A stretch of 64,000 bases of DNA from positions 159,394 to 223,393 of IMG/VR virus record IMGVR_UViG_3300028584_000450; one strand, given 5' to 3'. How positions within the stretch are numbered: the first letter of the stretch is position 1; every line of letters starts with the position of its first letter. The notes below the pieces were generated by a model. The model made no database searches, had not been told where the DNA came from, and was given only the letters and a program-made list of their open reading frames with translations. The DNA is from a virus. Lineage: Duplodnaviria; Heunggongvirae; Uroviricota; Caudoviricetes. Of the stretch, positions 8,744 through 42,192 are shown piece by piece. The translations under genes and the position numbers were made by a program.

Positions 8744-8780
8744 AAAGTATATGGTAAATTATGATACCGAGATCTAACAC

Positions 8781-9305: not shown

Positions 9306-9741
9306 TGAAATGGATAATGAAATGAATGATGAAGAATATGAACAATTCAAATCTGGAATTAATCAAACTCCCGAACTATGTAAACAGGCAATTAAACAAT
9401 ATGTATGGGCAATACAATATGTAAAAGATCAAACAGAAGAGTTATGTAAACTTGCAATTGAAGAAAATGCATATGCAATTTCACACATAAAAAATCCAAC
9501 TGAAGAGATGTGTAAATTAGCAATTTTACGAGATTCATGGTCTATTAAATATATAAAAGATCAAACTCCTGAAATATGTAAATTGGCATTATTAAATGAA
9601 CCATACTTGATTCAACATATACGAAATCCAACTACAGAACTGTGTAAGTTTGCAATTAAACATAAGAGTGCAGCAATTGAATTTATCGATAGAGATAAAT
9701 TTCCAGAAGTATATGAATATTGGAGGTTATTATATGAATAA
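9298..9741 (+). CDS. DUF4116-like tandem-repeat protein, array paralog 14
   Basis: Same family. Confidence 0.8.
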   Translation: MDNEMDNEMNDEEYEQFKSGINQTPELCKQAIKQYVWAIQYVKDQTEELCKLAIEENAYAISHIKNPTEEMCKLAILRDSWSIKYIKDQTPEICKLALLNEPYLIQHIRNPTTELCKFAIKHKSAAIEFIDRDKFPEVYEYWRLLYE

Positions 9742-10108
9742 AGATGACGATATAAATCATCTTAGAGATATTGAAGATTTTATGTCTGATAAAAATCAAA
9801 CAGAACAAAAATGTAAAGATGTGCTTAATAATAATGGTTATATGTTAACATATGTAAAGAATCGAACTCCTGAATTATGTAAACTTGCAGTTATGACAAA
9901 TGGAGGCGCATTAGAATATGTAAAAGATCAAACACCTGAAATATGTAAACTTGCAATATTGCGTGATCCATGGGCAATTAAACATGTAAAAGAACAAACT
10001 CTGGAATTATGTAAATTTTCAATAGAATGCAATAAATTCACAATACAATATATTGATAAAGATAAATTTCCAGAAGCACACGAGTATTGGAGGTTATTAT
10101 ATGAATAA
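9734..10108 (+). CDS. DUF4116-like tandem-repeat protein, array paralog 15
   Basis: Same family. Confidence 0.8.
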   Translation: MNKDDDINHLRDIEDFMSDKNQTEQKCKDVLNNNGYMLTYVKNRTPELCKLAVMTNGGALEYVKDQTPEICKLAILRDPWAIKHVKEQTLELCKFSIECNKFTIQYIDKDKFPEAHEYWRLLYE

Positions 10109-10559
10109 AAAAACATTAGAAAAATATAAACGACAAATTCGAAAGGATGCTCCAAATATATTCAATATACCAATAGAAAATCAAACTCCGGAACTTTGCA
10201 TATATGCAATTAATATAAATCCATGGGCATTTCAATATATAACGAACCAAACTCCCGAAATATGTAAACGGGCAATAGAAGAAAATCCATGGATGATTGA
10301 ATATGTAAAAGATCAAACAGAAGAATTATGTAAACTTGCAATTAAACTACTTCCATATTCAATCAAATTCATAAAAGAACAAACAGAAGAATTATGTAAA
10401 TTAGCAATTAAATTAGATGCTCGTTGCATTCACTATGTAAAAAATCAAACAGAAGAAATATGTATATTAGCAGTTAAGAAAGATAAAATGTCAATACATA
10501 ATATTGATAAAGATAAATTCCCACAAGCACATGAATATTGGAGACTGTTATATGAATAA
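10101..10559 (+). CDS. DUF4116-like tandem-repeat protein, array paralog 16
   Basis: Same family. Confidence 0.8.
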   Translation: MNKKTLEKYKRQIRKDAPNIFNIPIENQTPELCIYAININPWAFQYITNQTPEICKRAIEENPWMIEYVKDQTEELCKLAIKLLPYSIKFIKEQTEELCKLAIKLDARCIHYVKNQTEEICILAVKKDKMSIHNIDKDKFPQAHEYWRLLYE

Positions 10560-11076
10560 AGATAAATTTGAAAAATATAAACAACAAATTTCAGAAAATA
10601 TGTATGTATTCCAGGATATACCAATAGAAGATCAAACTCCGGAGTTATGCTTGTTTGCAATTAATATAAATCCATGGGCATTTCAATTTATAACAGACCG
10701 ATCTCCCGAAATATGTAAACGGGCAATAGAAGAAAATCCATGGATGATTGAACTTATAGAAGATCAAACAGAAGAATTATGTAAACTTGCAATTAAACTA
10801 CTTCCAGTTTCATTTAAATTCATAATAAACCAAACTCCTGAATTATGTAAACTTGCAGTTGAAAGAAATGTATATTGTATTCAATATGTAAAAGATCAAA
10901 CGGAAGAATTATGTAAACTTGCAATTGAACAAGATGGGAAATTATTAAAATATGTGAAAAATAAAACATTAGAATTATGCATGATTGCAATTAAACAAGA
11001 TCGGTTAGCAATTAAACGTATTAGTAAAATTAAATTCCCACAAGCACATGAATATTGGAGACTATTATATGGCTAA
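10552..11076 (+). CDS. DUF4116-like tandem-repeat protein, array paralog 17
   Basis: Same family. Confidence 0.8.
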   Translation: MNKDKFEKYKQQISENMYVFQDIPIEDQTPELCLFAININPWAFQFITDRSPEICKRAIEENPWMIELIEDQTEELCKLAIKLLPVSFKFIINQTPELCKLAVERNVYCIQYVKDQTEELCKLAIEQDGKLLKYVKNKTLELCMIAIKQDRLAIKRISKIKFPQAHEYWRLLYG

Positions 11077-11677
11077 TGTAGACTATTATATGGATGATGG
11101 AGCGATAATAGTTGGTAATGTTAATATAGACGAAATGAAAAAAATAAAACACATAAGGAAAATTAATAAAAGTGAAGAAGAATCAAAATTAGCAATTAAA
11201 CAAAATCCATTTGCATTACAATATGTAGAACATCAAACTAAAGAATTATGTTTGCATGCAATTAAAAAATCACCATGGGCATTTGAATATGTAAAGGATC
11301 AAACAGAAGAAATATGTAAATTCGCAGTTGAACTAAGTCCTTTTACACTTAAATTTATAAAAGAGCAAACAGAAGAATTATGTACAATTGCAGTTAATTT
11401 AGTGCCATCAGTAATTAGATATGTAATAAATCAAACCCCGGAATTATGCATGTCTGCAATAAGAAAAGATGCATTATCATTAGAGTATATACAAGTTCAA
11501 ACAAAAGAACTTTGTGAAATTGCAGTTAAAATTAATCCATGGGCAATGAGATATATAAAAAATCCAACCATCCGATTATATAAACTTGCAATTGAACAAG
11601 AACCAAAGACAATCGAATATATTGATGAGACTAAATTTCCAGAAGCTCATGAGTATTGGAGATTACTATACGGCTAA
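11069..11677 (+). CDS. DUF4116-like tandem-repeat protein, array paralog 18 (last)
   Basis: Same family. C-terminal EYWRLLYG. No downstream paralog. Confidence 0.8.
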   Translation: MANVDYYMDDGAIIVGNVNIDEMKKIKHIRKINKSEEESKLAIKQNPFALQYVEHQTKELCLHAIKKSPWAFEYVKDQTEEICKFAVELSPFTLKFIKEQTEELCTIAVNLVPSVIRYVINQTPELCMSAIRKDALSLEYIQVQTKELCEIAVKINPWAMRYIKNPTIRLYKLAIEQEPKTIEYIDETKFPEAHEYWRLLYG

Positions 11678-11731
11678 CCTAAACACTATTTATTATCCCC
11701 ACATAATAAATGTAAATTTGGTTGATATTAA

Positions 11732-11744
11732 TTAACGGCAAAAT
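11732..11744 (+). promoter_or_regulatory. TTAACGGCAAAAT motif
   Basis: One of 8 same-orientation copies in the window. 40 nt upstream of the 11785 start. Confidence 0.35.
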
Positions 11745-11784
11745 CTGATAGTCCAATTATAAAAATCCCATTTGGAGGCAAAAA

Positions 11785-12228
11785 ATGAAAAAAGTGAAAA
11801 AAGTAAGTAAAACAATAGATACGATAAAGACATTCAAAATCTCCCCAGATACAGAATATGATATTGAATTTGATGAAGATGGGCCTTTCGATTGTCTAAT
11901 ACAAATTAGACATTTTGTATATGGTATAAGTAGCGTTGGTATTACAAAATTAAATCTAGACAATGTAATTAAAGATGCCGAAATTGTAGTTGCGACAGCT
12001 AAACTCACTGAAGATATTGAACCTATAATTAAAGAATTGGTATCAACATGCATTACAACTAGATATAAAGTAAAAGAAGTAGATGGTATCAATGATATAA
12101 CTACCAAAGTTAATCATATGATTAAAAATAAACCAGAATTATGGATAAATATAATTGGAGGAATGTCTGCTATTAGACAAATGCGCAATGAAGAAATTTT
12201 AAGCCTAAATGAACCTAAATGGAGTTAG
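11785..12228 (+). CDS. hypothetical protein
   Basis: ORF with GGAGG upstream. Confidence 0.6.
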   Translation: MKKVKKVSKTIDTIKTFKISPDTEYDIEFDEDGPFDCLIQIRHFVYGISSVGITKLNLDNVIKDAEIVVATAKLTEDIEPIIKELVSTCITTRYKVKEVDGINDITTKVNHMIKNKPELWINIIGGMSAIRQMRNEEILSLNEPKWS

Positions 12229-12241
12229 ATTCAATATTATA

Positions 12242-12251
12242 ATATAGATAT
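12242..12251 (+). promoter_or_regulatory. ATATAGATAT promoter-like motif
   Basis: Exact 10-mer, immediately followed by a hairpin. Confidence 0.4.
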
Positions 12252-12257
12252 TATTGA

Positions 12258-12298
12258 TTATAGGGAATGAGAAATCATTCCCTATAATTACTATTTTT
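12258..12298 (+). terminator. hairpin plus T-run (terminator or 5' leader structure)
   Basis: Stem TTATAGGGAATGA/TCATTCCCTATAA, GAAA loop, then a T-run. Confidence 0.5.
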
Positions 12299-12324
12299 AT
12301 TAATCAATCTAGGAGGTTTAACAT

Positions 12325-12759
12325 ATGACATATAACATGAAAGATATCGAATATATTAATTTTAATAAGATATATAATTGGGAATATTATATGGGATTTG
12401 CATATGATATGATAACGGATAAATTAATAGAGCGATCAATGGACTTCAATTTAAAAAATATTAATATAGACGATCATTGGTATCATCAAGAATTTTTTAA
12501 TGACCTAAATAAAAGTAAACGTGATGTAATAAAAATGCATGCTTATCGAATTGCAGCACTAGCAACAATTATTAAGAACAATTCAAATGAGATAATTACC
12601 CCTATTGATTTTGACTCAATTCGGTGGAATAATGGTTGTTCTGGAGTTCAAGATGGTAATCATAGAATCAGAGCATTTCAATTTCTAAAATATAAAAGTT
12701 TTCCAGCAAATTGTTCTGGAGAAGAATCTGAGATATTTAAGATAATCGATCTGGATTAA
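12325..12759 (+). CDS. ParB-like nuclease domain protein
   Basis: DGNHRIRAF motif (ParB/Srx D-G-x-H-R box). SD GGAGG upstream. Confidence 0.5.
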   Translation: MTYNMKDIEYINFNKIYNWEYYMGFAYDMITDKLIERSMDFNLKNINIDDHWYHQEFFNDLNKSKRDVIKMHAYRIAALATIIKNNSNEIITPIDFDSIRWNNGCSGVQDGNHRIRAFQFLKYKSFPANCSGEESEIFKIIDLD

Positions 12760-12783
12760 TTTAAACTAAAATATATAGATATT

Positions 12784-12793
12784 AGTAAAATAT
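12784..12793 (+). promoter_or_regulatory. ATATAGATAT promoter-like motif
   Basis: Exact 10-mer, about 30 nt upstream of the 12822 start. Confidence 0.4.
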
Positions 12794-12821
12794 AGATAAT
12801 GATTTATTTTTAGGAGAACGA

Positions 12822-13349
12822 ATGGCTAAATTTAGAGAAATAAAACAATATACACAAACACCATATTATCAAATAAATGTTAGTTGGGAAGAAGTTGAAA
12901 GTAAATTAGAATCAATATATAATAATAGGATGGGATATAAAGTTGAGTTAATTCCAGATTTCCAAAGAGGACATATCTGGTCTGAAAAGAAACAAATTGA
13001 ATATGTTGAATTTAAACTTCGTGGAGGTAATGGATCGAATGTATTAATTTGGAATTGCCCAGGATGGATGAACTCGTATATTGGTCCATATCAATTAGTA
13101 GATGGATTGCAACGAATCACAGCCGTGCAAAGATTTATGAAGAATGAAATTAAAGCCTGTGGATATTTGTATTCTGAATATGAAGATAGATTATTAAGTA
13201 ATTGTGAATTCGTATGGACAATTAATAATCTTAAATATAGACGAGATATACTACAATGGTATATTGAATTAAATTCTGGAGGTGTCGTTCATACACAAAA
13301 AGAAATAGATAGAATAAAATCGCTATTAGAAGTCGAACTTAAACTTTAA
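12822..13349 (+). CDS. DUF262 (ParB-like/GmrSD N-terminal) domain protein
   Basis: IPDFQRGHIW and VDGLQRITAV match the DUF262 signature motifs. Confidence 0.6.
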   Translation: MAKFREIKQYTQTPYYQINVSWEEVESKLESIYNNRMGYKVELIPDFQRGHIWSEKKQIEYVEFKLRGGNGSNVLIWNCPGWMNSYIGPYQLVDGLQRITAVQRFMKNEIKACGYLYSEYEDRLLSNCEFVWTINNLKYRRDILQWYIELNSGGVVHTQKEIDRIKSLLEVELKL

Positions 13350-13372
13350 AATTGTTGGAGCCTATTTAAAAA

Positions 13373-13930
13373 ATGATCGTTACGTTATCAGAACAGACAA
13401 AAGCGCACATAAAAACATTACGTCTATCGCCAAATACTTATTCATTTACAACTAGAGAATTGACACGAGCATATAAACGAGAAATCGTCAAAGCTCATCC
13501 AGAGAATGGTGGTTCTGATAGTAAATTACAAATAGTAAAATTTGCATATGATACCCTCAAATATATAGCAAATGATATCACCCCAGTATCAAAATATCAA
13601 ACATGTCCAGTATGTGAAGGCAATAAATTAATGATAATGAATAATAACTCAAAAAAGATCCCATGTCCAGATTGTGATACATTTCTTAATTCCAAAAATG
13701 AAATTGGTCCATCCGGAAAACAATCAATAAAATGTAAAGCATGTAATGGTGACGGAGTTTATAAACTGAAAAATGGTCGATTTGTACAATGCAAAAATTG
13801 TGATGGAATTGGTAAATTTATATTTAAATGTAAAAGTTGCAAAGGTACTAAATATATATCAGATCCAACGCAACCACCAGCAGTAACCCCATGTAGAAAT
13901 TGCAATGGAAGTGGAAAGATAGTAATTTAA
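13373..13930 (+). CDS. DnaJ-like protein: J-domain plus six CxxC(x)GxG zinc-finger motifs
   Basis: AYKREIVKAHPENGG...KFAYDTL is J-domain-like with HPE in place of HPD. CPVCEGNK, CKACNGDG, CKNCDGIG, CKSCKGTK and CRNCNGSG motifs. Confidence 0.6.
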   Translation: MIVTLSEQTKAHIKTLRLSPNTYSFTTRELTRAYKREIVKAHPENGGSDSKLQIVKFAYDTLKYIANDITPVSKYQTCPVCEGNKLMIMNNNSKKIPCPDCDTFLNSKNEIGPSGKQSIKCKACNGDGVYKLKNGRFVQCKNCDGIGKFIFKCKSCKGTKYISDPTQPPAVTPCRNCNGSGKIVI

Positions 13931-13941
13931 TTAAACTCAAA

Positions 13942-13979
13942 TCATAGGAATATATAACGTATTCCTATGATTATTTTTT
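13942..13979 (+). terminator. rho-independent terminator
   Basis: Stem TCATAGGAATA/ATTCCTATGA followed by TTATTTTTT. Confidence 0.6.
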
Positions 13980-13999
13980 ATAAAGGAATTCTCCAGATC

Positions 14000-14374
14000 A
14001 TGAAAAAGATAATATTAGATACTATTGATTTCATACCAGATATATTTATTGAAGAAGATTTAGATTATCATTTTGAATTTAATATATGTTTAGATATTAT
14101 ACCAGTTCAAATTCGAATTATAGAAATTAAAATAAATAGAGGATTTAGAAATATTTCTGAAATTAGAATTTTAGATGTTACCAATAATGTTAAACTTACG
14201 GTATTAAATGAATTAAAAGCAAGTGATGAGTTATCTGGAAGCATTAAAGCCCTATGGCCAAGTTTAATAGAAATGATTGCACATAAACATAAATTAAATC
14301 ATAATCATTTAGAGATAGCAAACTTATGGACTTTAATATTAACTAAATTCAATAAATTAACTATATCAAATTAA
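14000..14374 (+). CDS. hypothetical protein
   Basis: ORF. Start placed after the terminator hairpin (MKKIILDTI). Confidence 0.55.
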   Translation: MKKIILDTIDFIPDIFIEEDLDYHFEFNICLDIIPVQIRIIEIKINRGFRNISEIRILDVTNNVKLTVLNELKASDELSGSIKALWPSLIEMIAHKHKLNHNHLEIANLWTLILTKFNKLTISN

Positions 14375-14382
14375 GGAGAAAT

Positions 14383-15129
14383 ATGATAACTAAAACGCAA
14401 CTTGATGATAAGTTAAAAAGATTAAATATTAAATGTGAACTTGAATTTGATATAGAATCAATATTTAACGTTGATAAAGAATCAAACATTAATAAGATAA
14501 TATTAATGTCTAATGTCAATTATAAATTAAGATTTAATGTTAAAGATAGATCTACAATTTTTGTAATTCTATTATATTCTAATTCAAATCCATCCGAAAG
14601 CAATATTGAATATTATATTGAAGAAGCCCAAATTGATACTTCCGAAATTAAATATCAACTATATTGCAGAAGTGTAATTAATAAAAGACCATCATGCACT
14701 GCATATTATGCATATAAAGAAATGATGCATAGTTTAAATTATCTACCAAAATATCAACAATTAGGAAATATTAATGAATTAACAGAACTAATTAATAATA
14801 TTGTTGATCTAGTAACTATAGATATCGATAATGTTGATGATGTTGATAAAATTATAGAACCTATCGAACAAGAAAAATCATATAAGATAGTATTACATTA
14901 TACAACTGGATTGAAAGCCATATTATTTATAGTTAGATATAGTAAAGATGTTACTCATTTAATATTTACAGATCAATTAGAATTAAATATGGATGAATTT
15001 GCAGTCATAATAGCTGTAAAATCTCCAACTGTAATATATGGTGAATTATGGGAAATATGGAATCGTACAGTTAATATGATTATTGATAAGTATAAAGTAG
15101 AATATAAAAAATCTATAGAATCGAATTAA
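14383..15129 (+). CDS. hypothetical protein
   Basis: 248-aa ORF with SD AAGGAG upstream. Confidence 0.6.
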   Translation: MITKTQLDDKLKRLNIKCELEFDIESIFNVDKESNINKIILMSNVNYKLRFNVKDRSTIFVILLYSNSNPSESNIEYYIEEAQIDTSEIKYQLYCRSVINKRPSCTAYYAYKEMMHSLNYLPKYQQLGNINELTELINNIVDLVTIDIDNVDDVDKIIEPIEQEKSYKIVLHYTTGLKAILFIVRYSKDVTHLIFTDQLELNMDEFAVIIAVKSPTVIYGELWEIWNRTVNMIIDKYKVEYKKSIESN

Positions 15130-15156
15130 TATAATTCAATTATTTTTGTATAGTTT

Positions 15157-15166
15157 ATATAGATAT
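15157..15166 (+). promoter_or_regulatory. ATATAGATAT promoter-like motif
   Basis: Exact 10-mer. Confidence 0.4.
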
Positions 15167-15332
15167 ATAAGTTAGAATAGGTCTGAAAATCTTTAGGACT
15201 GTAAATATCAAAGATGATTTATTTGGAGGCAATGTAACCTATAATTATGAGGAGTGGTATCACCTAAGTATTGGATTAGAGATTAAAGTAGAGGTTGTAT
15301 TCGAAATAAATGCCAAAAAGGAAATTAAAACA

Positions 15333-15926
15333 ATGTTAAATTTAATAAATAGAAAATCAATTAAAGTATTAGTATTCATCGGTATGATTATGCTCGGTGG
15401 AGTAATCGGATATGGAGCATCAGTCGCAGTTAATGGATTTTCTAGAATTAATAAGTATCGCATTATTATAAAAAATAATGACATTGCTATTAATAACCTG
15501 AAAGCAGAAATGAAGCAAAATGTCAGTGTTATTGGTGAGCTTAAAGAAACGATAAATGATCTCAAAGAAGATATTGGTCTTGTTGATTCAAAATTGGATT
15601 TTCAAGATATCGAGAAAGTTAAGATAACATTCTATGCACCATCAGAAGGTGGGATAAATTCAAATGGTGATCCAAGTAAAACTGCCATTTTGAAAAAACC
15701 AATTTCAGGAAGAACGTGTGCTATAAGCACTGCTCTTTACGAAAAAGGTTGGTTATTCCATAAAGTTTATGTAGATGGGATTGGTATCTTTGAGGCCACA
15801 GATAGAATGAATACTAAAGTCAAGGGTATGCAAGTTGATATCTGCACAACTTCTAGTAGAAAGGCTAGAAAATTGACCCCAAAACATCGGGCAATAATTG
15901 TCAAACTTGAGCGCTTAAAGGATTAG
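15333..15926 (+). CDS. membrane-anchored 3D-domain (MltA/YocH-like) protein, possible cell-wall lytic enzyme
   Basis: N-terminal TM helix. KITFYAPSEGG...GRTCAIS...VYVDGIGIFEATDRM..VDI resembles the 3D domain. Confidence 0.45.
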   Translation: MLNLINRKSIKVLVFIGMIMLGGVIGYGASVAVNGFSRINKYRIIIKNNDIAINNLKAEMKQNVSVIGELKETINDLKEDIGLVDSKLDFQDIEKVKITFYAPSEGGINSNGDPSKTAILKKPISGRTCAISTALYEKGWLFHKVYVDGIGIFEATDRMNTKVKGMQVDICTTSSRKARKLTPKHRAIIVKLERLKD

Positions 15927-15935
15927 AAAAATAAT

Positions 15936-15968
15936 GCATGGGATGAAATTAAAAGTTTCATCCCATGC
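15936..15968 (+). terminator. terminator hairpin
   Basis: Stem GCATGGGATGAAA/TTTCATCCCATGC, loop TTAAAAG. No strong T-run follows. Confidence 0.5.
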
Positions 15969-16067
15969 AAATAACCTATAGGAAAAACCATTAATGTGGG
16001 AGATAATATTGATTTCAACTCTAATATTATTATTAGAGAAAATTATAAACTAATAATAGGATATTAA

Positions 16068-16598
16068 ATGAAAACTCGAAGACATTTACTAATATCGGAT
16101 ACACATTTTGGACACTTTAAACTAGTTAATTCTGGATATCGTCCAGATGGATTTGAAATTCAAATATTAGATAATTTACATAAGGTTAGCATCCCAACAG
16201 ATATATTAATATGCCTTGGAGATGTAAGTTTTTATAGACATGAAATTTGGCAAAAGAAATTACTCAAATCATTTAATGGGACACATGCATGGTTGGTTAA
16301 AGGAAATCATGATTACCAATCAGACAATTGGTATTTGAATATTGGATGGGATTTTGTGGGCGAACAAATTTCTCTGACTCGGTTTAAAAAGAAAATTTTA
16401 TTTACTCACATCCCAATGGACGATATTAGTAAATGGGATTTAAATATTCACGGGCACATGCATAGTGGTGTTCATCATCCTGAAATCAAATTAGCTGGAA
16501 AGCATAAATTAATATCTATGGAGAATAACAATTATCATCCAACAATATTACAAGATATATGCAATGAACCGATAATAGGAGAGTTAAATGAACATTAA
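16068..16598 (+). CDS. calcineurin-like metallophosphoesterase
   Basis: Motifs ISDTHFGH, GDV, GNHD, THIP, GHMH. Confidence 0.8.
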   Translation: MKTRRHLLISDTHFGHFKLVNSGYRPDGFEIQILDNLHKVSIPTDILICLGDVSFYRHEIWQKKLLKSFNGTHAWLVKGNHDYQSDNWYLNIGWDFVGEQISLTRFKKKILFTHIPMDDISKWDLNIHGHMHSGVHHPEIKLAGKHKLISMENNNYHPTILQDICNEPIIGELNEH

Positions 16599-17214
16599 AA
16601 TATTTATAAGTAAAGATAATTCACCAATATCGAAATCAAAAGATTCCCGATTTTTTAAACAATTTGTCGTATTTAAAGATAAGAAGTTCTGGATAGATGA
16701 GAATGGAGAATATAATGAATTATCGGATAATATATATAAATATATATTATGGGTTGCTGGAGAAGATAATATAGAATATATAAATTTATTATCTGATGAA
16801 GTGGAAAAGAAATTAAAAATTCTAATATTAAATCATTTAGATACATTTATTGAATCGAAAGATGAAATAATAAACTTTCTTAAAAATTTCAATCACATTT
16901 CAGATTATAAACCAGAAATTAAAGAAAGCCGGATTGTGTTATTTAATTCAAAAAAAATAAAGATCATAGAAACTAAAAATGGAGTGAAAATTAATGGATT
17001 TACAATCAATAAGAATACAAATCCAATACATTTTCCAGAAGTAATAAAAGAACAAATGGGTATAGATGAACTCATATCATTGGTAAATACAATAAATGGT
17101 AAATTATCTAAATTTAGAATAATATATAAAGATCCATATAAAGAACCACATAAAGCTGAAGATCCACAATTATATTATGGAATTACAGTTATCGATAAAC
17201 CACAACCTAAATAG
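16588..17214 (+). CDS. hypothetical protein
   Basis: Start overlaps the upstream stop. Confidence 0.6.
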   Translation: MNIKIFISKDNSPISKSKDSRFFKQFVVFKDKKFWIDENGEYNELSDNIYKYILWVAGEDNIEYINLLSDEVEKKLKILILNHLDTFIESKDEIINFLKNFNHISDYKPEIKESRIVLFNSKKIKIIETKNGVKINGFTINKNTNPIHFPEVIKEQMGIDELISLVNTINGKLSKFRIIYKDPYKEPHKAEDPQLYYGITVIDKPQPK

Positions 17215-19952: not shown

Positions 19953-20426
19953 CTAAACAATAACAATATTAACTCCATAAGATTCCATACATTTTTTTGC
20001 TGTCGGAAATTTAATTTCACTATGAACAGGAATTGTTGCAGATATACTTCTATATTCACCGTGCAATCCAGATGTAACTGGAGAAAATGTAGATACATCA
20101 GTAATTGTATATATGCTACATGGATGATTCATTAAATGTGATAATTTCTTTGGTATTTTAAATATACCTTTCCAGATTTTAGAATTTGCAGATGTATATA
20201 TATGTGAAGAGAATTCAATACCAAAACTATCATCCCATGGGAATGTAAATGCAGAACATACATTTCTAGAAGTTGCAGCATATATCCATTTTTTACCTAA
20301 TGAAGATCCACTATTTGAGATATTATGAATCGAATGCAATTCTTTTAAGTTCGAAATATGAGATGCATGATATAAGATTGTTGGTTTTTTCACATTATTA
20401 GTTAATACTAAATCATTTATAGTCAT
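19953..20426 (-). CDS. hypothetical protein sharing N-terminal MTINDLVLTNNVK module with neighbour
   Basis: 157-aa ORF. First 13 codons plus RBS-proximal sequence are identical to 20437..20919. Confidence 0.55.
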   Translation of the reverse strand: MTINDLVLTNNVKKPTILYHASHISNLKELHSIHNISNSGSSLGKKWIYAATSRNVCSAFTFPWDDSFGIEFSSHIYTSANSKIWKGIFKIPKKLSHLMNHPCSIYTITDVSTFSPVTSGLHGEYRSISATIPVHSEIKFPTAKKCMESYGVNIVIV

Positions 20427-20436
20427 TTAATTATTC

Positions 20437-20919
20437 CTATATTATTTTAGATGCTATATATTCACAAAATTTCTCTTCATCTAACTTAGTATTACCATAT
20501 GTAGTATTTTTTATAGAATCGATATATACAGTTGTAAAATTAACTAATAATCGTTTATATTTTTCTTTCTCACCAACAGTTAATATATGTTTATATATTT
20601 CATGTGATAGTTCATGCGCGGTTAATAGTCGTTGAAATTTTATAATATTCGTATTTTTCATATTATAAAATTTACTTACTTTTTCTAAATGATCTAAATC
20701 TCCTACATTAATTGATTTATTTTTTTGCCAATTACCACCACAAGCATATGGATTCATTTTAGGATTTGGTTTTCCATTATCAAAATAACATCCATTTTTA
20801 ATATTAATCTTCATATAAGATATATCATATCCAAACATTTGTTTAATTTTAAGTTTTATATCATCTAATGAATTATTTAATTTCACATTATTAGTTAATA
20901 CTAAATCATTTATAGTCAT
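20437..20919 (-). CDS. hypothetical protein with HExxH motif (possible ImmA/IrrE-like metallopeptidase)
   Basis: AHELSHEIYKH motif. Shared N-terminal module with 19953..20426. Confidence 0.45.
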   Translation of the reverse strand: MTINDLVLTNNVKLNNSLDDIKLKIKQMFGYDISYMKINIKNGCYFDNGKPNPKMNPYACGGNWQKNKSINVGDLDHLEKVSKFYNMKNTNIIKFQRLLTAHELSHEIYKHILTVGEKEKYKRLLVNFTTVYIDSIKNTTYGNTKLDEEKFCEYIASKII

Positions 20920-21613: not shown

Positions 21614-21696
21614 AAATAAGTATATAGTCAGTTTTATTTTAATCAACTTAATCAAAAAAGGAGATCGATCATGTACGAAATAAAAATATTAATTAG

Positions 21697-21747
21697 TATA
21701 TAGTCAATATATAGTTAATATATAGTCAATTCAATTCAATTCAATTT
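21697..21747 (+). promoter_or_regulatory. tandem operator-like repeats: 3 x TATATAGT(C/T)AA then 4 x TCAAT
   Basis: 11-bp period x3, then 5-bp period x4, ending 15 nt before the 21762 start. Related half-site repeated in the palindrome at 22724. Confidence 0.45.
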
Positions 21748-21761: not shown

Positions 21762-22721
21762 ATGCATAAAGTAATAATATCGAATAGCTTCGTTACCATG
21801 GCAGAAAATGTACCGACCCATACTGTTGAAGCTGAGTATGGTGATAATTGTGTATATGGAACGAAACTAACTCTAGCCCATCATGGGTCTAGGTCAGAAA
21901 GTCCATGTCCATGCCTTGGAGATAATATTAAAGACCAAGCAGAGGGCATAATAATTGGAATATCCCATATTGATATGGATACCCTCGGTGGTATTTATCG
22001 AATACTGGGATTAAAATCCCCAGATCTTCAACCTAATGATGTGGAGACAATGTTTTGGAACATGGTCGCTAAAATTGATATCTTAGGATATCATAAACTA
22101 GACGAAATCAGAGAACAAATGTGGTTGGAGTTGGAGTATCCAGATACAATAGGCTCGGCTCTTGAGTTTTTCAATGAGCGTTGGGGATATCTATTGGAGA
22201 TTCTCCATGGTATGTATGCCTGGTTTGGAAAAAATGAAATAACAATCCCAGAGGATGGGAGCATCCATGATTGTACATTTCACATAAATGAAGGTTGCAG
22301 AGTTCTTGATGTTCTGGGACTTGGTGATCTAAAAAATGATGAGTTTAAAAGACTCAACCAAGATGGCATTGCTTGGAAAAAAGACCAGGATGATTTAAAT
22401 GCAAAAACCCTAGTCGAAGATATTCCGGGAATTATTGCATTCCGGGTATCAGATAAATTTGTAAACCACATGTATATCTCGCCAACAGGAACCCCTTATC
22501 TTGGGGTTGTTGGATTTGATAATCAAGTCGGATCTATCACAATATCATTGATGGATCCAATTGAAGGGGTTGATTGTTGTCAGATTATGCAACAGTTTTA
22601 TGGTCCCCATGCTGGTGGTCATAAGGGTATCGCCGGAAGCCCAAGAAATCTAAAAGTGACTCAGGATGAGGGTTTCAAAATGTTTAAGATATTCGGAAAT
22701 ATCATTAAACAGAATATTTAA
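21762..22721 (+). CDS. putative DHH/DHHA1-family phosphoesterase-like protein (GC-elevated)
   Basis: GISHIDMDTLGG (DHH motif I-like), AHHG, and C-terminal HAGGHKGIAGSP (DHHA1 GGGH..AAG-like). Motifs are degenerate. Confidence 0.35.
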   Translation: MHKVIISNSFVTMAENVPTHTVEAEYGDNCVYGTKLTLAHHGSRSESPCPCLGDNIKDQAEGIIIGISHIDMDTLGGIYRILGLKSPDLQPNDVETMFWNMVAKIDILGYHKLDEIREQMWLELEYPDTIGSALEFFNERWGYLLEILHGMYAWFGKNEITIPEDGSIHDCTFHINEGCRVLDVLGLGDLKNDEFKRLNQDGIAWKKDQDDLNAKTLVEDIPGIIAFRVSDKFVNHMYISPTGTPYLGVVGFDNQVGSITISLMDPIEGVDCCQIMQQFYGPHAGGHKGIAGSPRNLKVTQDEGFKMFKIFGNIIKQNI

Positions 22722-22723
22722 TC

Positions 22724-22763
22724 AATTGGACTATATAATAATAACATATTATATAGTCCAATT
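22724..22763. promoter_or_regulatory. perfect palindrome with 17-bp arms (terminator/operator)
   Basis: AATTGGACTATATAATA-6 nt-TATTATATAGTCCAATT. Shares TATATAGTC with the repeats at 21697. Confidence 0.5.
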
Positions 22764-22800
22764 AACTATTTTTTAATCTAAACATAACAGGAGATATAAT

Positions 22801-23259
22801 ATGAATACGATAACTGGAGATTTAATCGAATTTGCTGAAAATGGACAGTTTGAAGTTATAATCCACGGATGCAATTGTTTCTGTCAGATGGGAGCTGGAA
22901 TAGCAAAACAAATAAAATCAGAATATCCAGAAGCATATCAAGAAGATTGTAAAACTAAAAAAGGAGATAAATCTAAACTTGGCAACTATTCATGGAAACT
23001 GGTTACTGGAAAATACGAATGGAAATTCATAATAATTAATGCATATACACAATACCACTATGGTAGAGGTATACATGCTGATTATAATTCAATTCGATCT
23101 GTATTTAAATCAATAAAACAAAATTTCAATACTTGTAAAATAGCATATCCAAAAATCGGAGCTGGAATGGCGGGTGGTGATTGGAATGTAATAAAATCTA
23201 TAATAGAAGAAGAATTATCTGGATGTGACCATACATTAGTTATATTACCCAATAAATAG
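22801..23259 (+). CDS. macro-domain (ADP-ribose binding/hydrolase-like) protein
   Basis: VIIHGCNCFCQMGAGIAKQI resembles macro VxxNAAN..GGGVxGAI. IAYPKIGAGMAGGDW resembles IAFPxISTGxYG. Confidence 0.5.
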   Translation: MNTITGDLIEFAENGQFEVIIHGCNCFCQMGAGIAKQIKSEYPEAYQEDCKTKKGDKSKLGNYSWKLVTGKYEWKFIIINAYTQYHYGRGIHADYNSIRSVFKSIKQNFNTCKIAYPKIGAGMAGGDWNVIKSIIEEELSGCDHTLVILPNK

Positions 23260-23281
23260 TTATATTGGTTTATACTATTTC

Positions 23282-23291
23282 ATATAGATAT
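23282..23291 (+). promoter_or_regulatory. ATATAGATAT promoter-like motif
   Basis: Exact 10-mer inside a duplicated promoter/leader cassette. Confidence 0.45.
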
Positions 23292-23378
23292 TGATAAGTA
23301 ATAAAAAAGAACTTAATTCACATTCCGTGAGTTAAGTTCATTCACAGCCCGTTTGGGCATAGAAGAAGGAGAATTATT

Positions 23379-23576
23379 ATGGATTATGTGATCGAGTTAA
23401 TCAAATATGTCCCTACCGAACCTAGAAAGTTTGGTAGGGTTATTTCAACAAACAAACAGGCCCTGAGAATTTGGGGCATGTTGGTGAAAACAATTGGGGT
23501 AGTCGATTCAGTCGACTATCCCAATTTAGTAGAAACAGAAAGAACTGGGTATTGCTTGAACGTCCGCAATATCTAG
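23379..23576 (+). CDS. small protein, paralog of 24088..24270
   Basis: MDYxIxLIK...ALRIW...YCLxxRN is shared with 24088..24270. Upstream ~115 bp duplicated. Confidence 0.55.
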   Translation: MDYVIELIKYVPTEPRKFGRVISTNKQALRIWGMLVKTIGVVDSVDYPNLVETERTGYCLNVRNI

Positions 23577-23900
23577 TCTTTCCAAGGGGATTTCACCCGG
23601 ACAATAAAAGTCCGTGCCTCTTAACTGACGGTCTAATTTAGTTAATTAGACCCACCTTCTACGGTGAAAAAGAACCACTTGAAGCCTGGATAGACAGAGT
23701 GGGGTAAGTAGGAGCGCAAAGCCGGCACGGGGTGAATTAGACACATCCTAGGACCGGTGCGGAAGTAAAAGATCCCAATGACAATAAGTGGATCAATGTC
23801 GAAGTTCGGAATATGGAGACCAATCAATAATATATCAGTGATGATATAGATAATGCATTGGATTAAAGAGCGAGGCAGAGCCGCTACGCCATATTCACTA

Positions 23901-23961
23901 CCTATCTTCAAGGGAAGATAGGTAGAGGTCTCTAGGATTCCTAGAGAACCGCTATTTTTTT
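23901..23961 (+). terminator. double-hairpin terminator
   Basis: CCTATCTTC-AAGG-GAAGATAGG and GGTCTCTAGG-ATT-CCTAGAGAACC, then TATTTTTTT. Identical copy at 24309. Confidence 0.7.
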
Positions 23962-23992
23962 GATAAATAGTTATATTGGTTTATACTATTTC

Positions 23993-24002
23993 ATATAGAT
24001 AT
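23993..24002 (+). promoter_or_regulatory. ATATAGATAT promoter-like motif
   Basis: Second copy of the duplicated cassette. Confidence 0.45.
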
Positions 24003-24087
24003 TGATAAGCAATAAAAGAACTTAATTCACATTCCGTGAGTTAAGTTCATTCACAACCCATTTGGGCATAGAAGAAGGAGAATTATT

Positions 24088-24270
24088 ATGGATTATGAAA
24101 TTCAATTAATTAAGTGCCTCGGAAGTGAAAGGCTTGTGGTTGAAATAAATCAAAATGCTCTCCGAATTTGGAGAGCATTAATGAATACTTGTGGGCATGC
24201 ATTTGAATGTCCACAAGTAGTTAATACACACGATGGGGTTAGTTATTGCCTAGATATACGTAATAACTAA
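24088..24270 (+). CDS. small protein, paralog of 23379..23576
   Basis: See 23379. Confidence 0.55.
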   Translation: MDYEIQLIKCLGSERLVVEINQNALRIWRALMNTCGHAFECPQVVNTHDGVSYCLDIRNN

Positions 24271-24308
24271 ACTCCCACGCCCTGAATAAGGCATAAAACT
24301 ATTCACTA

Positions 24309-24369
24309 CCTATCTTCAAGGGAAGATAGGTAGAGGTCTCTAGGATTCCTAGAGAACCGCTATTTTTTT
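24309..24369 (+). terminator. double-hairpin terminator (copy 2)
   Basis: Same two hairpins plus T-run. Confidence 0.7.
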
Positions 24370-24389
24370 ATATAATTTTATATAATTTT

Positions 24390-24482: not shown

Positions 24483-25901
24483 ATGGATTTATCATATCGT
24501 TCGAACGAAGTATTTAATGTAGAAAATAACATCACTATCGATCTTCCTACTGGAGTTACATACTCCAGGGAAGTGATAAAAGAAGATAAATCTTCTCCAT
24601 TGAAATTCCCAACATGGAAATCATGGGCTGGATTAGAGGGATGGTGCGATACCATCGAGAAAAAGTTTAATTGGTCCAGAAATAGGGCATTTATTGCCCT
24701 GATGGATCCGGAAAAGGATTGTGACTGGGTTTCTGAGTTATCAGAATCTCAGTGTGATTTAATTGTCGAGAGTCTTAGGTCACCATTTAAAGTGACCTGG
24801 AATCGAGAAAAAGTTAAGATTTGGATTAAGAAATATAACCAGATGATATATCTTAACCAATGGTTAGAATGTCCATTGGATGAAAGATTCAAACCCAAAT
24901 CAAGAAAGGGGTTTGATTTGGCTATAACCCTATCGGTTAGACCAACACCATTTATAATAGCGTGGTTTAATCGCCTAGAGGCTAAAGACTACCATCGATA
25001 TTCACATACCGATATGTGGGTATTGATGATATTGGGGAGAACATCTCCAAAACTATCTAAGTTGTATGACCACATATATGGTATTGACACCACATATTTT
25101 GATAATTCTGAAGAATTCAAGGAAATCTGCAATCAAATTGACTTGAAATATATGAAGTTCTCATCTAAAGGAGAAATAAAAGCTCTTCTAGATGCGGGAG
25201 TTCATCCAACAACTCTAGTCGGGAAAGAGTTTACTAAGGCAGAAGCATGCCAAATGGTAAAAACAAGATCTAGTTATACATTACCTGAACTGAAATCTAC
25301 AAAGCTCAGGATGTATATGAGCACCCTCAACATCCCGGTAGGGTGGTATGAAGAAATCCGTAGTAGGGAAGTTGCGGATTGGGCAAATTCCCATGTAGAA
25401 AAATTGGACCGCACAAGGGAAATCCACGGTCCAGCTGGTGCAATGCAAACAATGCATTATCATCAGCTTTTATATAAGGTAACCCCAGGTATGTTACCTC
25501 AAGGACCTAAAACTGCTTGGAGAAAAGTTATAGGTAGTCTTGAAGAAGTAGCGCGTCTACAGATTCAAGAAGAATTGGGGAAGAATGTTGAATTACCACA
25601 ACTCAAACATCCAGAGATGTTTGATGTTGAAAGAATCAAGACTTCTTTCGAATTAAAGAAAGAAGGTGAATTGATGGGCCATTGCGTTGGTGGGTATGTA
25701 CGATCTTGTTTAAGCAAGAAATCATATATATACCACATTGGGGATGTTGCTCCAAAAGGGGCGACGTTAGAAGTATGTTATGTCCAAAGCAAATTTACAG
25801 CTCAACAGATGTTTATGTGGAAAGATAAACCTGCAGATGCAGATCTGTGGGAAATTGCAAATCTATTGGTGGCAAGCATCAATAGAACAAAGCAAAAATA
25901 G
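24483..25901 (+). CDS. PcfJ-like protein
   Basis: C-terminal KEGELMGHCVGGYVRSCLSKKSYIYHI matches the PcfJ family signature (EG..M.HCVG.Y). 472 aa, GC-elevated. Confidence 0.5.
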   Translation: MDLSYRSNEVFNVENNITIDLPTGVTYSREVIKEDKSSPLKFPTWKSWAGLEGWCDTIEKKFNWSRNRAFIALMDPEKDCDWVSELSESQCDLIVESLRSPFKVTWNREKVKIWIKKYNQMIYLNQWLECPLDERFKPKSRKGFDLAITLSVRPTPFIIAWFNRLEAKDYHRYSHTDMWVLMILGRTSPKLSKLYDHIYGIDTTYFDNSEEFKEICNQIDLKYMKFSSKGEIKALLDAGVHPTTLVGKEFTKAEACQMVKTRSSYTLPELKSTKLRMYMSTLNIPVGWYEEIRSREVADWANSHVEKLDRTREIHGPAGAMQTMHYHQLLYKVTPGMLPQGPKTAWRKVIGSLEEVARLQIQEELGKNVELPQLKHPEMFDVERIKTSFELKKEGELMGHCVGGYVRSCLSKKSYIYHIGDVAPKGATLEVCYVQSKFTAQQMFMWKDKPADADLWEIANLLVASINRTKQK

Positions 25902-26882: not shown

Positions 26883-27233
26883 ATGGATATTAATGTTATC
26901 CTGAATAAGCAGCATAAGTTGCTGCCAGATCAGGAACGAGTCCTTGCCGACATATTCGGTAAGGATTCATGGACCATCGTGTCAATCCCAGAAGCGGGGT
27001 TGACAGCTAACCAACAGGAAGAATTGGTTAGAACATTGACCGGTGTGGTGGTGTTTGCCAGCTGCCCACCGGTAATGGTGAAGGTAGCTGTTGAGGCAGC
27101 TACTAGCACCATCGATGGTGAAGATTGGATATATGAAGTGTTGGTCTTCGGTAATGACGTTCGGGAGAAGAAGGAACTCCCGAACGGACGCGTTATCTCG
27201 GTAATGGCCCAGACGGGCTGGTATCTGAGATGA
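26883..27233 (+). CDS. hypothetical protein (GC-elevated)
   Basis: 116-aa ORF. GC-rich codons contrast with neighbours. Confidence 0.55.
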   Translation: MDINVILNKQHKLLPDQERVLADIFGKDSWTIVSIPEAGLTANQQEELVRTLTGVVVFASCPPVMVKVAVEAATSTIDGEDWIYEVLVFGNDVREKKELPNGRVISVMAQTGWYLR

Positions 27234-41842: not shown

Positions 41843-41851
41843 GAGGATGAA

Positions 41852-42166: not shown

Positions 42167-42192
42167 TAATTAATTAAATAGGAGATAATACA

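Follow-up and report, generated by a model that had tools for sequence, protein, structure and literature searches.

Stand-alone phosphodiesterases of the DHH/DHHA1 superfamily are exemplified by NrnA, and another DHH-family enzyme, NrN, degrades SAM-AMP. Among proteins with a macro domain, yeast Poa1p is an ADP-ribose 1''-phosphate phosphatase, and BT1257 (2fg1) and 2afc are uncharacterised bacterial macro proteins. In phages, the macro protein AdfM (PhiKZ gp104) reverses DarT2 DNA ADP-ribosylation and serves in counter-defence (PMC13309987), and DUF4326, SLOG and Macro have been assigned to a phage network that processes ADP-ribose derivatives (Iyer et al., PMC9503650). Because phage macro domains with a counter-defence function are documented, the general idea that a phage macro gene might act in this way is a reasonable one.

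The 64-kb stretch of DNA analysed here (the window) carries on its + strand two adjacent genes that recall these two groups of proteins. ORF1 (21762–22721, 319 aa) is predicted to encode a divergent phosphoesterase of the DHH/DHHA1 superfamily, and ORF2 (22801–23259, 152 aa) a stand-alone macro domain of the DarG/TARG1/Poa1p class. A preliminary description had proposed that they form an anti-defence pair. On balance we favour, though not strongly, an explanation in which they are two separate accessory enzymes and do not make up a dedicated two-component system.

The locus and its host element

The window belongs to a very large (at least about 257 kb), AT-rich, uncultured and phage-like element that has no nucleotide match to known phages; its assignment as a phage is tentative because it rests on weak tail-fibre PHROG matches and gene organisation. 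No phage homologue was found for a 322-aa ORF. An Rfam scan of the window gave no family at threshold, and a sub-threshold match to OxyS (E 0.054) was dismissed as chance.

Both ORFs lie exactly where the preliminary description had placed them, are preceded by an AGGAG ribosome-binding site 7–8 nt 5′ of the gene, and are separated by 79 nt. The same description considered both genes to be elevated in GC and therefore horizontally acquired. When compared with 61 ORFs of the window, this is true of ORF1 (GC 0.384, z +1.7) but not of the macro gene, whose value (0.307, z +0.09) is typical of the window, and the argument from GC for joint acquisition fails: the compositionally unusual gene is ORF1 only. 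The GC-rich patch itself is a mosaic across 21.7–27.3 kb, and it reaches its maximum at the ORF at 26883–27233 (GC 0.49).

Sequence and predicted fold of ORF1

ORF1 has no match in Pfam (PF01368, PF02272), PHROGs, NCBIfam or PADLOC, or by phmmer, and a profile of its family has no match in the PDB; none of the first four resources captures the family, and it was a fold search only, after the sequence-profile searches had given nothing, that identified it. The AF2 model (pLDDT 95.9, pTM 0.91) has a two-domain DHH plus DHHA1 fold, in which residues ~1–216 form a rearranged DHH-like domain and a helical linker and residues ~217–319 form the DHHA1 domain, and Foldseek searches of the PDB and of BFVD led to the same families. 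As modelled, ORF1 is a rearranged and previously unclassified member of the DHH/DHHA1 superfamily. The DHH-like call of the preliminary description is upheld, and the family is most conserved at the motif-I and DHHA1-like peptides that it singled out.

Across an alignment of 46 sequences, S68, H69, D71, D73, G76 and G77 (GISHIDMDTLGG) are invariant, as are A284, G286, G292 and P294 (HAGGHKGIAGSP), and G285, H287, I290, A291 and S293 of the latter segment are at least 90% conserved. Further invariant residues are E23, E25, H40, H41, C51, D106, H111, R228, Y238, T260, S262 and R295, and by alignment and AF2 model nearly all invariant positions hold His, Asp, Glu or Arg and are placed right behind beta-strands. 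The first segment has the features of motif I (SHxDxD, in which the DxD follows the first strand and the helix then starts with xxGS/GG), and in the second A284-G285-G286-H287, all invariant or near-invariant, align to the DHHA1 GGGH of NrnA. With hhalign against NrnA/TmPDE, SHxDLDTLGG falls on HxxPDxDAxGS and AGGHxGIAGS on GGGHPxASG (E 6.8e-4), the motif-I segment being placed on NrnA HRHVRPDPDAYGS. The DHHA1 family PF02272 is matched below threshold by 12 of the 46 relatives (best E 0.0043), and no other family recurs in more than two of them.

The canonical motifs II (D), III (DHH) and IV (D) are absent behind motif I, where residues 94–216 are predicted to be all-helical and have no DHH triad. 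The motifs TVEAE, AHH and PxPC, all invariant, are found in a 60-residue N-terminal extension, and the conserved residues E23/E25, A39-H40-H41 and D106/H111 are possible substitutes for motifs II–IV. Direct-coupling analysis of 250 relatives (Neff 226) gave the couplings T19-I64, T21-G66 and V4-I65/I67, and therefore the TVEAE and motif-I strands form a parallel pair. The RxRxR strand that binds the substrate phosphate in enzymes of the NrnA/GdpP type is not present; the aligned strand of ORF1 is ITISL (given also as I-T260-V-S262-L), and the family consensus at this position is ITVSL versus IRVRFRS in NrnA.

The macro domain of ORF2

ORF2 matches Pfam PF01661 with 40.4 bits (cut-off 22) and phrog_335 with E 8.6e-52, which bears out its preliminary identification as a macro protein, and its best PDB, NCBIfam and PADLOC matches are all to the DarG macro domain. 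The residues that bind ADP-ribose are kept, namely N25, G31-x-G33, T83 and the G120–D127 loop (GAGxAGGD), and among them N25, G31, G33, G120 and G122–G126 of the Asn, GxG and Gly-rich loop positions are conserved. By these profiles and residues, ORF2 is a true macro protein and falls in the DarG/TARG1/Poa1p class. The annotation of phrog_335 is 'phosphatase', which is inherited.

A lysine equivalent to K80 of TaqDarG or K84 of TARG1 is not found in ORF2. Its AYTQ motif places Q84 opposite the K of FPTK in MtbDarG and AdfM, and this glutamine is conserved in at least 90% of the ORF2 macro family. The full-length DarG architecture is also missing from this protein of only 152 aa, which scores 49.9 bits against the NCBIfam cut-off of 250 for the DarG equivalog, and neither DarT nor any PADLOC match was found among the neighbouring genes. 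The family has homologues in 2,946 phage records and is among the commonest phage accessory families; the closest homologues of ORF2 are ordinary stand-alone chromosomal genes of many bacteria, with 55–66% identity. The presence of Q84 in the whole family narrows its possible activity, and is a warning that a DarG-like macro domain in a phage need not be an anti-DarT factor.

A promoter-like motif at both genes

Two exact copies of TATATAGTCAA (21697–21707 and 21719–21729, + strand) lie in front of ORF1, the second of them 43 nt 5′ of its ATG, and are a candidate −10/operator element of the ORF1 promoter. A first, imperfect copy, TATATAGTCAG (21621–21634, + strand), is 50 nt 5′ of a 10-codon mini-ORF (ATG at 21671) and sits inside a ~91–98-nt imperfect tandem duplication of the ORF1 leader and ribosome-binding site. 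Starting 3 nt past the ORF1 stop is a perfect 17-bp AT-rich hairpin followed by a T-run (22724–22763, + strand), which resembles a terminator and has TATATAGTCCAATT in both arms. Its right arm is 51 nt 5′ of the macro ATG, and since this spacing matches that of the other copies, the arm may double as a promoter element of the macro gene. The motif of the two genes can also be written TATATAGTC(A/C)A. Exact matches number four in 64 kb, with 0.25 expected, and all are at the ORF1/ORF2 locus. ORF1 and ORF2 both carry this locus-specific element and are probably co-expressed, and this is the sole link between them in the data.

Distribution and neighbours of the ORF1 family

A profile search of 1.84 billion sequences showed the ORF1 family to be small and sharply bounded; it comprises about 825 clusters at 50% identity, and the profile matched these 825 only and did not reach canonical DHH proteins. 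Family members, typically 35–45% identical to ORF1, occur in phages and in MAGs of Patescibacteria and Clostridia, with 48 loci in the IMG/VR viral data and 39 among the genomes of 185,579 reference species, and the family is present in one of 50,697 deposited phage genomes.

The neighbours of ORF1 relatives include, in separate contexts, ERF/YqaJ/HNH/dCMP deaminase genes, dUTPase/SNF2 genes and SSB, and also NrdD, RNR, ThyX and CTP synthase on the 5′ side and SNase on the 3′ side. Such nucleotide-metabolism neighbours are sporadic (about 6–8 of ~70 contexts) and form no conserved operon, and in Patescibacteria chromosomes the relatives adjoin cell-wall genes. A Pfam scan of two genes on each side of 66 non-redundant loci found no recurrent neighbour family, and when 1,110 flanking ORFs were clustered all against all, the clusters were confined to closely related loci. 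Overall, ORF1 relatives are usually in phage replication/nucleotide-metabolism regions or in cellular MAGs, and given this neighbourhood nucleotide turnover fits at least as well as signal erasure. Rare fusions join ORF1 relatives to HD phosphohydrolase domains of the CCA-enzyme and RelA/SpoT types, and a cREC cyclic-phosphate domain adjoins one relative. We also note that one Clostridia subgroup keeps two uncharacterised proteins (269 aa and about 770 aa) 3′ of the ORF1 relative, and that a Cas10/RAMP match occurs once among the 3′ neighbours.

Leaving the window's own copy aside, co-occurrence with macro genes was scored in 66 other non-redundant loci and four further contexts. In two of these ~70 non-redundant contexts (L078 and L025/L026) an ORF1 relative has a macro gene within about 2 kb, and in both the macro gene belongs to a subfamily different from that of ORF2. 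The gene order at L078 is DUF4326-macro-[DHH-like]-SLOG-HD (YpsA-SLOG, HD_4). All three macro genes found in flanks of up to 8 kb are no more than 1.6 kb from the DHH-like gene, and the five closest relatives of ORF1 (40–45% identity) have no macro neighbour. A weak tblastn 'macro' match 3′ of the relative at L047/L052 was rejected; the ORF has no recognisable macro motifs and was judged by eye to be nucleotidyltransferase-like. Because macro genes are present in 40–56% of medium and jumbo phages (PMC9503650), a rough chance expectation is about one pairing, compared with the two seen. The proposed two-gene pair is not conserved, as it does not recur across unrelated genomes; co-occurrence of the two families is rare and therefore nothing shows a system, and the pair should not be catalogued as one.

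Possible functions of ORF1 and ORF2

ORF1 and ORF2 are most likely separate accessory enzymes that have a promoter-like motif in common, and we infer the chemistry of each from its fold and conserved residues. The first would be a catalytically competent, metal-dependent DHH/DHHA1 phosphoesterase of unusual build, retaining the motif-I loop (H69-x-D71-x-D73) and the DHHA1 GGH loop (H287). It would lack the strands of motifs II–IV, and the 60-residue N-terminal extension would contribute short strands that end in E23/E25 and H40/H41, which, next to the motif-I strand, probably make up the rest of a two-metal site. Its substrate is most likely a small phosphorylated nucleotide or a very short oligonucleotide (pAp-like, dinucleotide or nanoRNA-like), of which nanoRNA or pAp is a guess because T260-x-S262 replaces the RxRxR strand, and its product would supply nucleotide turnover during infection. 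By conservation, ORF2 is predicted to bind ADP-ribose, and it may hydrolyse an ADP-ribose derivative through Poa1p-like phosphatase or de-esterification chemistry rather than by the lysine-dependent route of DarG and TARG1. The two independent further macro neighbours, the L078 cluster and the common motif leave room for a link to ADP-ribose metabolism. The ORF1 family is a candidate for a new nucleotide-processing activity in phages, and would be a useful case of a two-metal phosphoesterase site re-wired via an N-terminal extension.

An anti-defence role is possible for ORF1 or for ORF2. Full-text literature searches on phage DHH anti-defence enzymes returned nothing specific. It seems rather unlikely that both genes have such roles independently, with ORF2 acting like an orphan antitoxin that, as AdfM does, strips ADP-ribose from phage DNA or RNA, and ORF1 degrading a nucleotide second messenger in the manner of NrN. 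The use of orphan DarG-like hydrolases by phages for counter-defence is proven (PMC13309987, PMC11825919), the two genes are part of a variable region of small accessory genes, and the best NCBIfam and PADLOC matches of ORF2 to DarG and its resemblance to AdfM (E 1e-7) agree with this reading. However, the DarG/TARG1 catalytic lysine is a glutamine throughout the ORF2 family and a K80A substitution inactivates DarG (PMC5179494), and the DarG equivalog score is far under its cut-off; in addition, the close homologues of ORF2 in many bacterial chromosomes and the cell-wall genes beside ORF1 relatives in Patescibacteria count against it. Successive action of the two proteins on a single immune signal or adduct, either nucleotide or ADP-ribose-containing, with for instance the macro protein removing or opening the ADP-ribose and the DHH-like enzyme cutting the remaining phosphodiester, could be directed against Thoeris, CBASS, type III CRISPR or DarT-like systems, and we think it quite unlikely. 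The 79-nt spacing, a motif found 5′ of both genes and nowhere else in the window, and the macro genes of another subfamily that adjoin or lie close to the DHH-like gene at L078 (with its DUF4326, YpsA-SLOG and HD_4 neighbours) and L025/L026 are in its favour, as are RyR-domain genes in the same window, proteins of this type in phages having been shown to degrade cADPR signals (2026 preprint, 10.64898/2026.05.28.727677). Against it are the near-chance frequency of pairing in the ~70 other contexts, the five closest relatives that have no macro neighbour, the disparity between 2,946 phage records for the macro family and a single deposited phage genome for that of ORF1, and the terminator-like hairpin between the genes. 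We know of no defence-signal chemistry that needs both a phosphodiesterase and a macro activity.

A broader proposal, that the ORF1 family is a circularly rearranged DHH phosphoesterase recruited in phages against an immune signal or by-product that is a nucleotide or derives from ADP-ribose, and working together with macro, SLOG, DUF4326 and HD enzymes, is in our judgement decidedly unlikely; if true, the window's pair, L078 and L025/L026 would be three views of a new and loosely linked branch of ADP-ribose counter-defence. Very unlikely, too, is the clearing of an RNA-repair by-product, in which the phosphodiesterase would open ADP-ribose 1'',2''-cyclic phosphate, the product of Tpt1/KptA, and the macro 'phosphatase' would then take the 1''-phosphate. 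The HxCNC motif common to ORF2 and yeast Poa1p, the lack of the lysine in both, the phrog_335 annotation, the relative fused to a CCA-enzyme-type HD domain and the cREC neighbour of another point this way, but these last are single fusions and single neighbours, and the 64-kb window yielded no KptA/Tpt1, RNA ligase, 2H or sirtuin gene. Finally, Cdc45 and AlaRS C-Ala are among the structural matches of ORF1 and its motifs II–IV are not in the canonical sequence order, as might be expected of a non-catalytic DHH-fold scaffold or nucleic-acid binder like these two; this is opposed by the more than 10 His, Asp, Glu and Arg positions, those of the metal-binding DxD and the GGH among them, that stay invariant at a typical 35–45% identity to ORF1, and as such a pattern is typical of an active site and not of a scaffold, we consider a non-catalytic role highly improbable.

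Comparison with known systems

In the phage ADP-ribose networks of Macro, SLOG, DUF4326 and NADAR genes (Iyer et al. 2022, PMC9503650) a macro gene is a standard member, and the ORF1 relative of L078 lies inside a DUF4326-macro-SLOG-HD cluster. The 64-kb window differs from these networks in that no SLOG, DUF4326, NADAR, ART or Nudix gene was found in it. The terms 'DHH' and 'nanoRNase' are absent from the main text of PMC9503650, and therefore no DHH-type enzyme is apparently described there.

ORF2 is of the same macro class as the DarG macrodomain, TARG1 and AdfM, which give its best HMM and PDB matches, and keeps the Asn, GxG, Thr and Gly-rich loop that contact ADP-ribose. ORF2 and AdfM are both stand-alone phage proteins but only 25% identical, and the catalytic lysine of DarG and AdfM (TaqDarG K80; FPTK in AdfM) is Gln84 in ORF2. 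It further differs from DarG in lacking the DarT-binding C-terminal domain and a DarT neighbour and in falling far below the equivalog cut-off. With Poa1p, BT1257 and 2afc (PDB E-values 3e-7 to 2e-6) ORF2 has the IH-x-CNC motif in common, although overall identity is low, and Poa1p likewise has no TARG1/DarG lysine (T-S in Poa1p, T-Q in ORF2).

ORF1 is like the stand-alone DHH/DHHA1 phosphodiesterases NrnA, PggH, TmPDE (TM1595), the GdpP catalytic domain and NrN in its motif-I loop, H-x-D-x-D-x-x-G-G, its DHHA1 GGH-x-x-x-AG, its length of ~300 aa and its being encoded by a single gene. Unlike these enzymes, it has no Pfam DHH match and a DHHA1 match that is sub-threshold only, its RxRxR strand is TxS, the chain behind motif I is all-helical where they have the strands with motifs II, III (DHH) and IV, and it adds the 60-residue N-terminal extension with its invariant TVEAE, AHH and PxPC.

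The ORF1/ORF2 locus and its composition

The window is AT-rich (GC 0.30), and its small, tightly packed ORFs lie mainly on the + strand with AGGAG ribosome-binding sites. PHROG matches identify collagen-like tail-fibre proteins at 49967–58172, and no deposited phage shows nucleotide-level similarity to the window; our tentative reading is that the window belongs to an uncultured phage or phage-like element of very large size. ORF1 (21762–22721, + strand, 319 aa) and ORF2 (22801–23259, + strand, 152 aa) lie exactly where the preliminary description placed them, and a near-identical copy of the locus is present in a JGI metagenome contig (L006).

Both genes had been described as GC-elevated and hence apparently horizontally acquired. 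This holds for ORF1, with GC 0.384 and GC3 0.31 (z +1.7; mean GC over window ORFs 0.303 ± 0.047), but not for ORF2, the macro gene, with GC 0.307 and GC3 0.18 (z +0.09 against window ORFs). The GC-rich stretch at 21.7–27.3 kb is a mosaic that includes ORF1, a small ORF (23379–23576, GC 0.40), a non-coding segment (23577–24087, GC 0.40), a PcfJ-like ORF (24483–25901, GC 0.38) and an ORF at 26883–27233 (GC 0.49, z +4.0). Because the macro gene does not have the composition of this mosaic, joint horizontal acquisition of the two genes is unsupported. We also note that no window ORF deviates more in composition than the last of these (116 aa, GC3 0.55), which belongs to a small family of ~29 unannotated proteins and has an identical copy on a 256,898-bp contig; the 472-aa PcfJ-like ORF carries that domain at its C-terminus (E 6.1e-6).

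Across the 64-kb window the 11-mer TATATAGTC(A/C)A has four copies (0.25 expected), all at the ORF1/ORF2 locus. Two copies lie upstream of ORF1. The other two make up the two arms of a hairpin (22724–22763; 17 bp, perfect) that begins 3 nt past the stop codon of ORF1, with a T-run behind it; an imperfect copy lies at 21621. The spacing of the element to the start codon is near-constant, at 50 nt for a 10-codon mini-ORF, 43 nt for ORF1 and 51 nt for the macro gene. From this placement we read the 11-mer as a candidate promoter (−10) or operator element common to ORF1 and the macro gene, and the hairpin would be a terminator and/or the carrier of the macro promoter. The arrangement supports co-regulation of the two genes, but a shared 11-mer is not proof of a shared pathway. 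The mini-ORF (21671–21703, MYEIKILISI) has its own AGGAG site and lies where ~91 nt of the ORF1 leader are imperfectly duplicated; it could encode a leader peptide or be just a relic of the duplication. Transcribed divergently from ORF1 are two adjacent ORFs of 157 and 160 aa (19953–20919, − strand) that have the N-terminal peptide MTINDLVLTNNVK in common and diverge beyond it.

Other features of the window

An upstream region of ~130 nt, together with the start of a small ORF, is repeated at 23255–23385 and 23965–24095 as a duplicated small-gene cassette. The cassette ORFs (23379–23576, 65 aa, and 24088–24270, 60 aa) are paralogues that both begin MDY.I.LIK, and a terminator-like double hairpin occurs twice, at 23893–23961 and 24302–24370. 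The first small ORF is separated from its terminator by a GC-rich segment (23577–23962, 0.40) with no convincing ORF. It folds at −124.5 kcal/mol (z −5.85 against shuffled controls, the terminator hairpins contributing), matches no Rfam family and nothing in deposited phages, and is a candidate structured RNA.

Paralogous genes form a long array on the + strand at ~1209–17200, in which many ORFs overlap the next by 30–90 nt. Pfam DUF4116 is matched by eighteen ORFs of the window (best E 7.6e-25), which we tentatively place in this array on the basis of its layout. On the − strand, a 685-aa ORF (47886–49943) has partial homologues in a few Vibrio and Microcystis jumbo phages. The window has one match each to Pfam dCache, HAMP and MCP-signalling, and this ORF is most likely their source; it would then be a chemotaxis protein of the methyl-accepting type, which is unusual for a phage-like element to carry. 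Tandem small paralogues of 104–110 aa occur at 41510–42519 and possibly also at 39248–39652, where a crude local search places the two window ORFs that match Pfam RyR, ~19 kb from the macro gene. According to a 2026 preprint (10.64898/2026.05.28.727677), Thoeris 2'/3'cADPR signals are cleaved or sequestered by phage proteins with a RyR domain (RyDEP), so this phage may carry ADPR-signal counter-defence in these genes.

ORF1 is a rearranged member of the DHH/DHHA1 superfamily

ORF1 has no match in Pfam, PHROGs, NCBIfam or PADLOC, and neither its sequence (phmmer) nor its family profile finds a meaningful match among PDB sequences. A word-seeded search gave 336 relatives, in which the only Pfam domain is an added pentapeptide-repeat domain in one protein (P0107). 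When 1.84 billion representatives were searched exhaustively with the family profile, only 825 matched (554 at E ≤ 1e-30), so the family is small and its profile does not reach the huge canonical DHH family.

In a 46-sequence alignment the invariant residues are E23 and E25 (TVEAEYG), H40 and H41 (TLAHHG), P50, C51, the motif-I residues S68, H69, D71, D73, G76 and G77 (SHxDLDTLGG), D106, G109, H111, R228, Y238, T260, S262 and, near the C-terminus, A284, G286, G292, P294 and R295; N235, H236, G285 and H287 are ≥90% conserved. For an AlphaFold2 model from this alignment (pLDDT 95.9, pTM 0.91), structural matches include RecJ-like proteins, NrN and Cdc45, and Foldseek recovers the same families from the PDB and the viral BFVD with weak E-values; the BFVD library holds no member of the ORF1 family. 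DHHA1 (PF02272) is the sole Pfam family matched repeatedly at E ≤ 10 (12 of 46 relatives, best 0.0043). Profile–profile alignment with NrnA/TmPDE, the NrnA sequence having been checked against the PDB, gives E 6.8e-4 at a probability of only 27%; it pairs SHxDLDTLGG with the motif-I loop HxxPDxDAxGS, and AGGHxGIAGS with GGGHPxASG. Together, the fold search and these sequence-level echoes show that the DHH motifs were correctly read at the level of fold.

Canonical DHH enzymes have strands with motif II (D), III (DHH) and IV (D), whereas the N-terminal domain of the ORF1 model lacks these, having only strands 3–6, 20–22, 36–38 and 64–67, then helix 72–81 (motif I), and is helical throughout to residue 216. 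By hhalign, residues 1–59 have no NrnA counterpart. The invariant E23/E25 and H40/H41 directly follow strands 20–22 and 36–38, respectively. Mean-field direct-coupling analysis of 250 relatives (Neff 226), a stand-in test of strand neighbourhood, gave strongest couplings that agree with the secondary structure of the model. T19–I64 and T21–G66 set strand 19–22 in parallel register with the motif-I strand, and other top couplings are V4–I65/I67, H20–I81 and L36–I81. The couplings therefore make the TVEAE and SHxDxD loops neighbours at the C-terminal edge of a parallel sheet, which is where the active sites of such folds sit. We infer that the domain is rearranged, possibly permuted, and that E23/E25 and H40/H41 may take the place of motifs II and III. 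ORF1 represents a new superfamily branch with a rearranged build, and is most likely an active two-metal phosphoesterase, its predicted substrate a small nucleotide.

Are the two genes a pair?

The preliminary description proposed ORF1 and ORF2 as a candidate anti-defence pair. Their families differ greatly in frequency: among 50,697 deposited phage genomes the ORF1 family is found in 1 and ORF2 homologues in 2,946, which argues against coupling. The comparison covered 48 viral loci of the ORF1 family and 39 from a set of 185,579 reference genomes, the latter chiefly in MAGs of Patescibacteria and Clostridia but also in Shimazuella kribbensis; several metagenome contigs with relatives were also examined. 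Flanks of up to 8 kb were searched for macro genes by tblastn and macro HMM. Apart from the window's own, this found a divergent macro-like gene ending 52 nt upstream of the ORF1 relative in locus L078 and a homologue 1.5 kb upstream in loci L025/L026; hhalign identifies both products as macro domains (probability 94.6%, E 6.6e-8). Every detected macro gene lies within 1.6 kb of the DHH-like gene, a notable proximity. Nonetheless, a macro neighbour occurs in only 2 of 66 other non-redundant groups against an estimated one or so expected by chance, given how common macro domains are in large phages; this is not significant, and four additional closest relatives had none (0/4).

No neighbour family recurs across the groups, and the closest relatives reside in replication or nucleotide-metabolism regions, next to ERF, YqaJ, HNH and dCMP deaminase in one case, SSB in another and AntA, dUTPase and SNF2 helicase in a further one. 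Upstream genes of relatives include NrdD, RNR, ThyX and CTP synthase, and downstream genes SNase; a Peribacteria chromosome has its copy amid cell-wall genes. The pair as an anti-defence system is unsupported, and we consider a coupled anti-defence function quite improbable. Separate anti-defence roles for the two proteins also seem unlikely. No KptA, RNA ligase, ART, Nudix, SLOG or NADAR genes were found within the 64-kb window.

L078 (4863–8851) encodes, in this order, DUF4326, the divergent macro, the DHH-like protein, a 91-aa unknown, a YpsA-type SLOG and HD_4 (RelA/SpoT-type HD), a suggestive, compact cluster whose common theme is the processing of ADP-ribose and nucleotides; its contig is binned to a Gammaproteobacteria MAG and is probably phage-derived. 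DUF4326, SLOG and Macro were assigned to a phage ADP-ribose-processing network by Iyer et al. (PMC9503650). Single relatives of ORF1 are fused to a CCA-enzyme-type HD domain and, with weak support, to a RelA/SpoT-type HD domain, and two carry pentapeptide-repeat fusions; the HD fusions point to nucleotides or RNA ends with 2'/3' phosphoryl groups. In the set of genes downstream of ORF1 relatives (A4), Cas10/Cmr2 palm and RAMP domains occur once each, just downstream of a relative, and a cREC cyclic-phosphate-processing domain occurs once.

Comparison with known enzymes

In the DHHA1 domain of ORF1, the RxRxR strand of NrnA aligns with I-T260-x-S262 (ITISL; family consensus ITVSL), and the invariant R228 and R295 lie elsewhere. 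Judged from these residues, substrate recognition is likely to differ from that of NrnA/GdpP.

The macro call for ORF2 is confirmed (Pfam Macro, 40.4 bits against a cut-off of 22), and phrog_335 ('phosphatase') matches at E 8.6e-52. Top PDB matches are the M. tuberculosis DarG macrodomain 5m3i (2.1e-8; PMC5179494), yeast Poa1p, BT1257 and TARG1; DarG is also the best NCBIfam and PADLOC match, at 49.9 bits far under the equivalog cut-off of 250. Stand-alone homologues with 55–66% identity occur in bacterial chromosomes, and Iyer et al. (PMC9503650) report macro domains in 40% of phages of medium size and in 56% of jumbo phages. The family alignment keeps the ADP-ribose-contacting residues N25, G31-x-G33, T83 and G120–D127, and ORF2 is predicted almost certainly to bind ADP-ribose. 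At the position of the catalytic lysine (TaqDarG K80, TARG1 K84; K80A inactivates DarG, PMC5179494), however, at least 90% of the family has Gln84. AdfM of PhiKZ, a phage macro protein with proven action against DarT2 (PMC13309987), keeps this lysine (FPTK) and is only 25% identical to ORF2; the L078 and L025/L026 proteins also retain it (FPVK). ORF2 thus fails the defining catalytic feature of DarG and AdfM, and is an ordinary, very common stand-alone macro protein of the DarG/TARG1/Poa1p class without the DarG/TARG1 lysine. Poa1p itself has Ser at that position and has the IH-x-CNC motif in common with ORF2.
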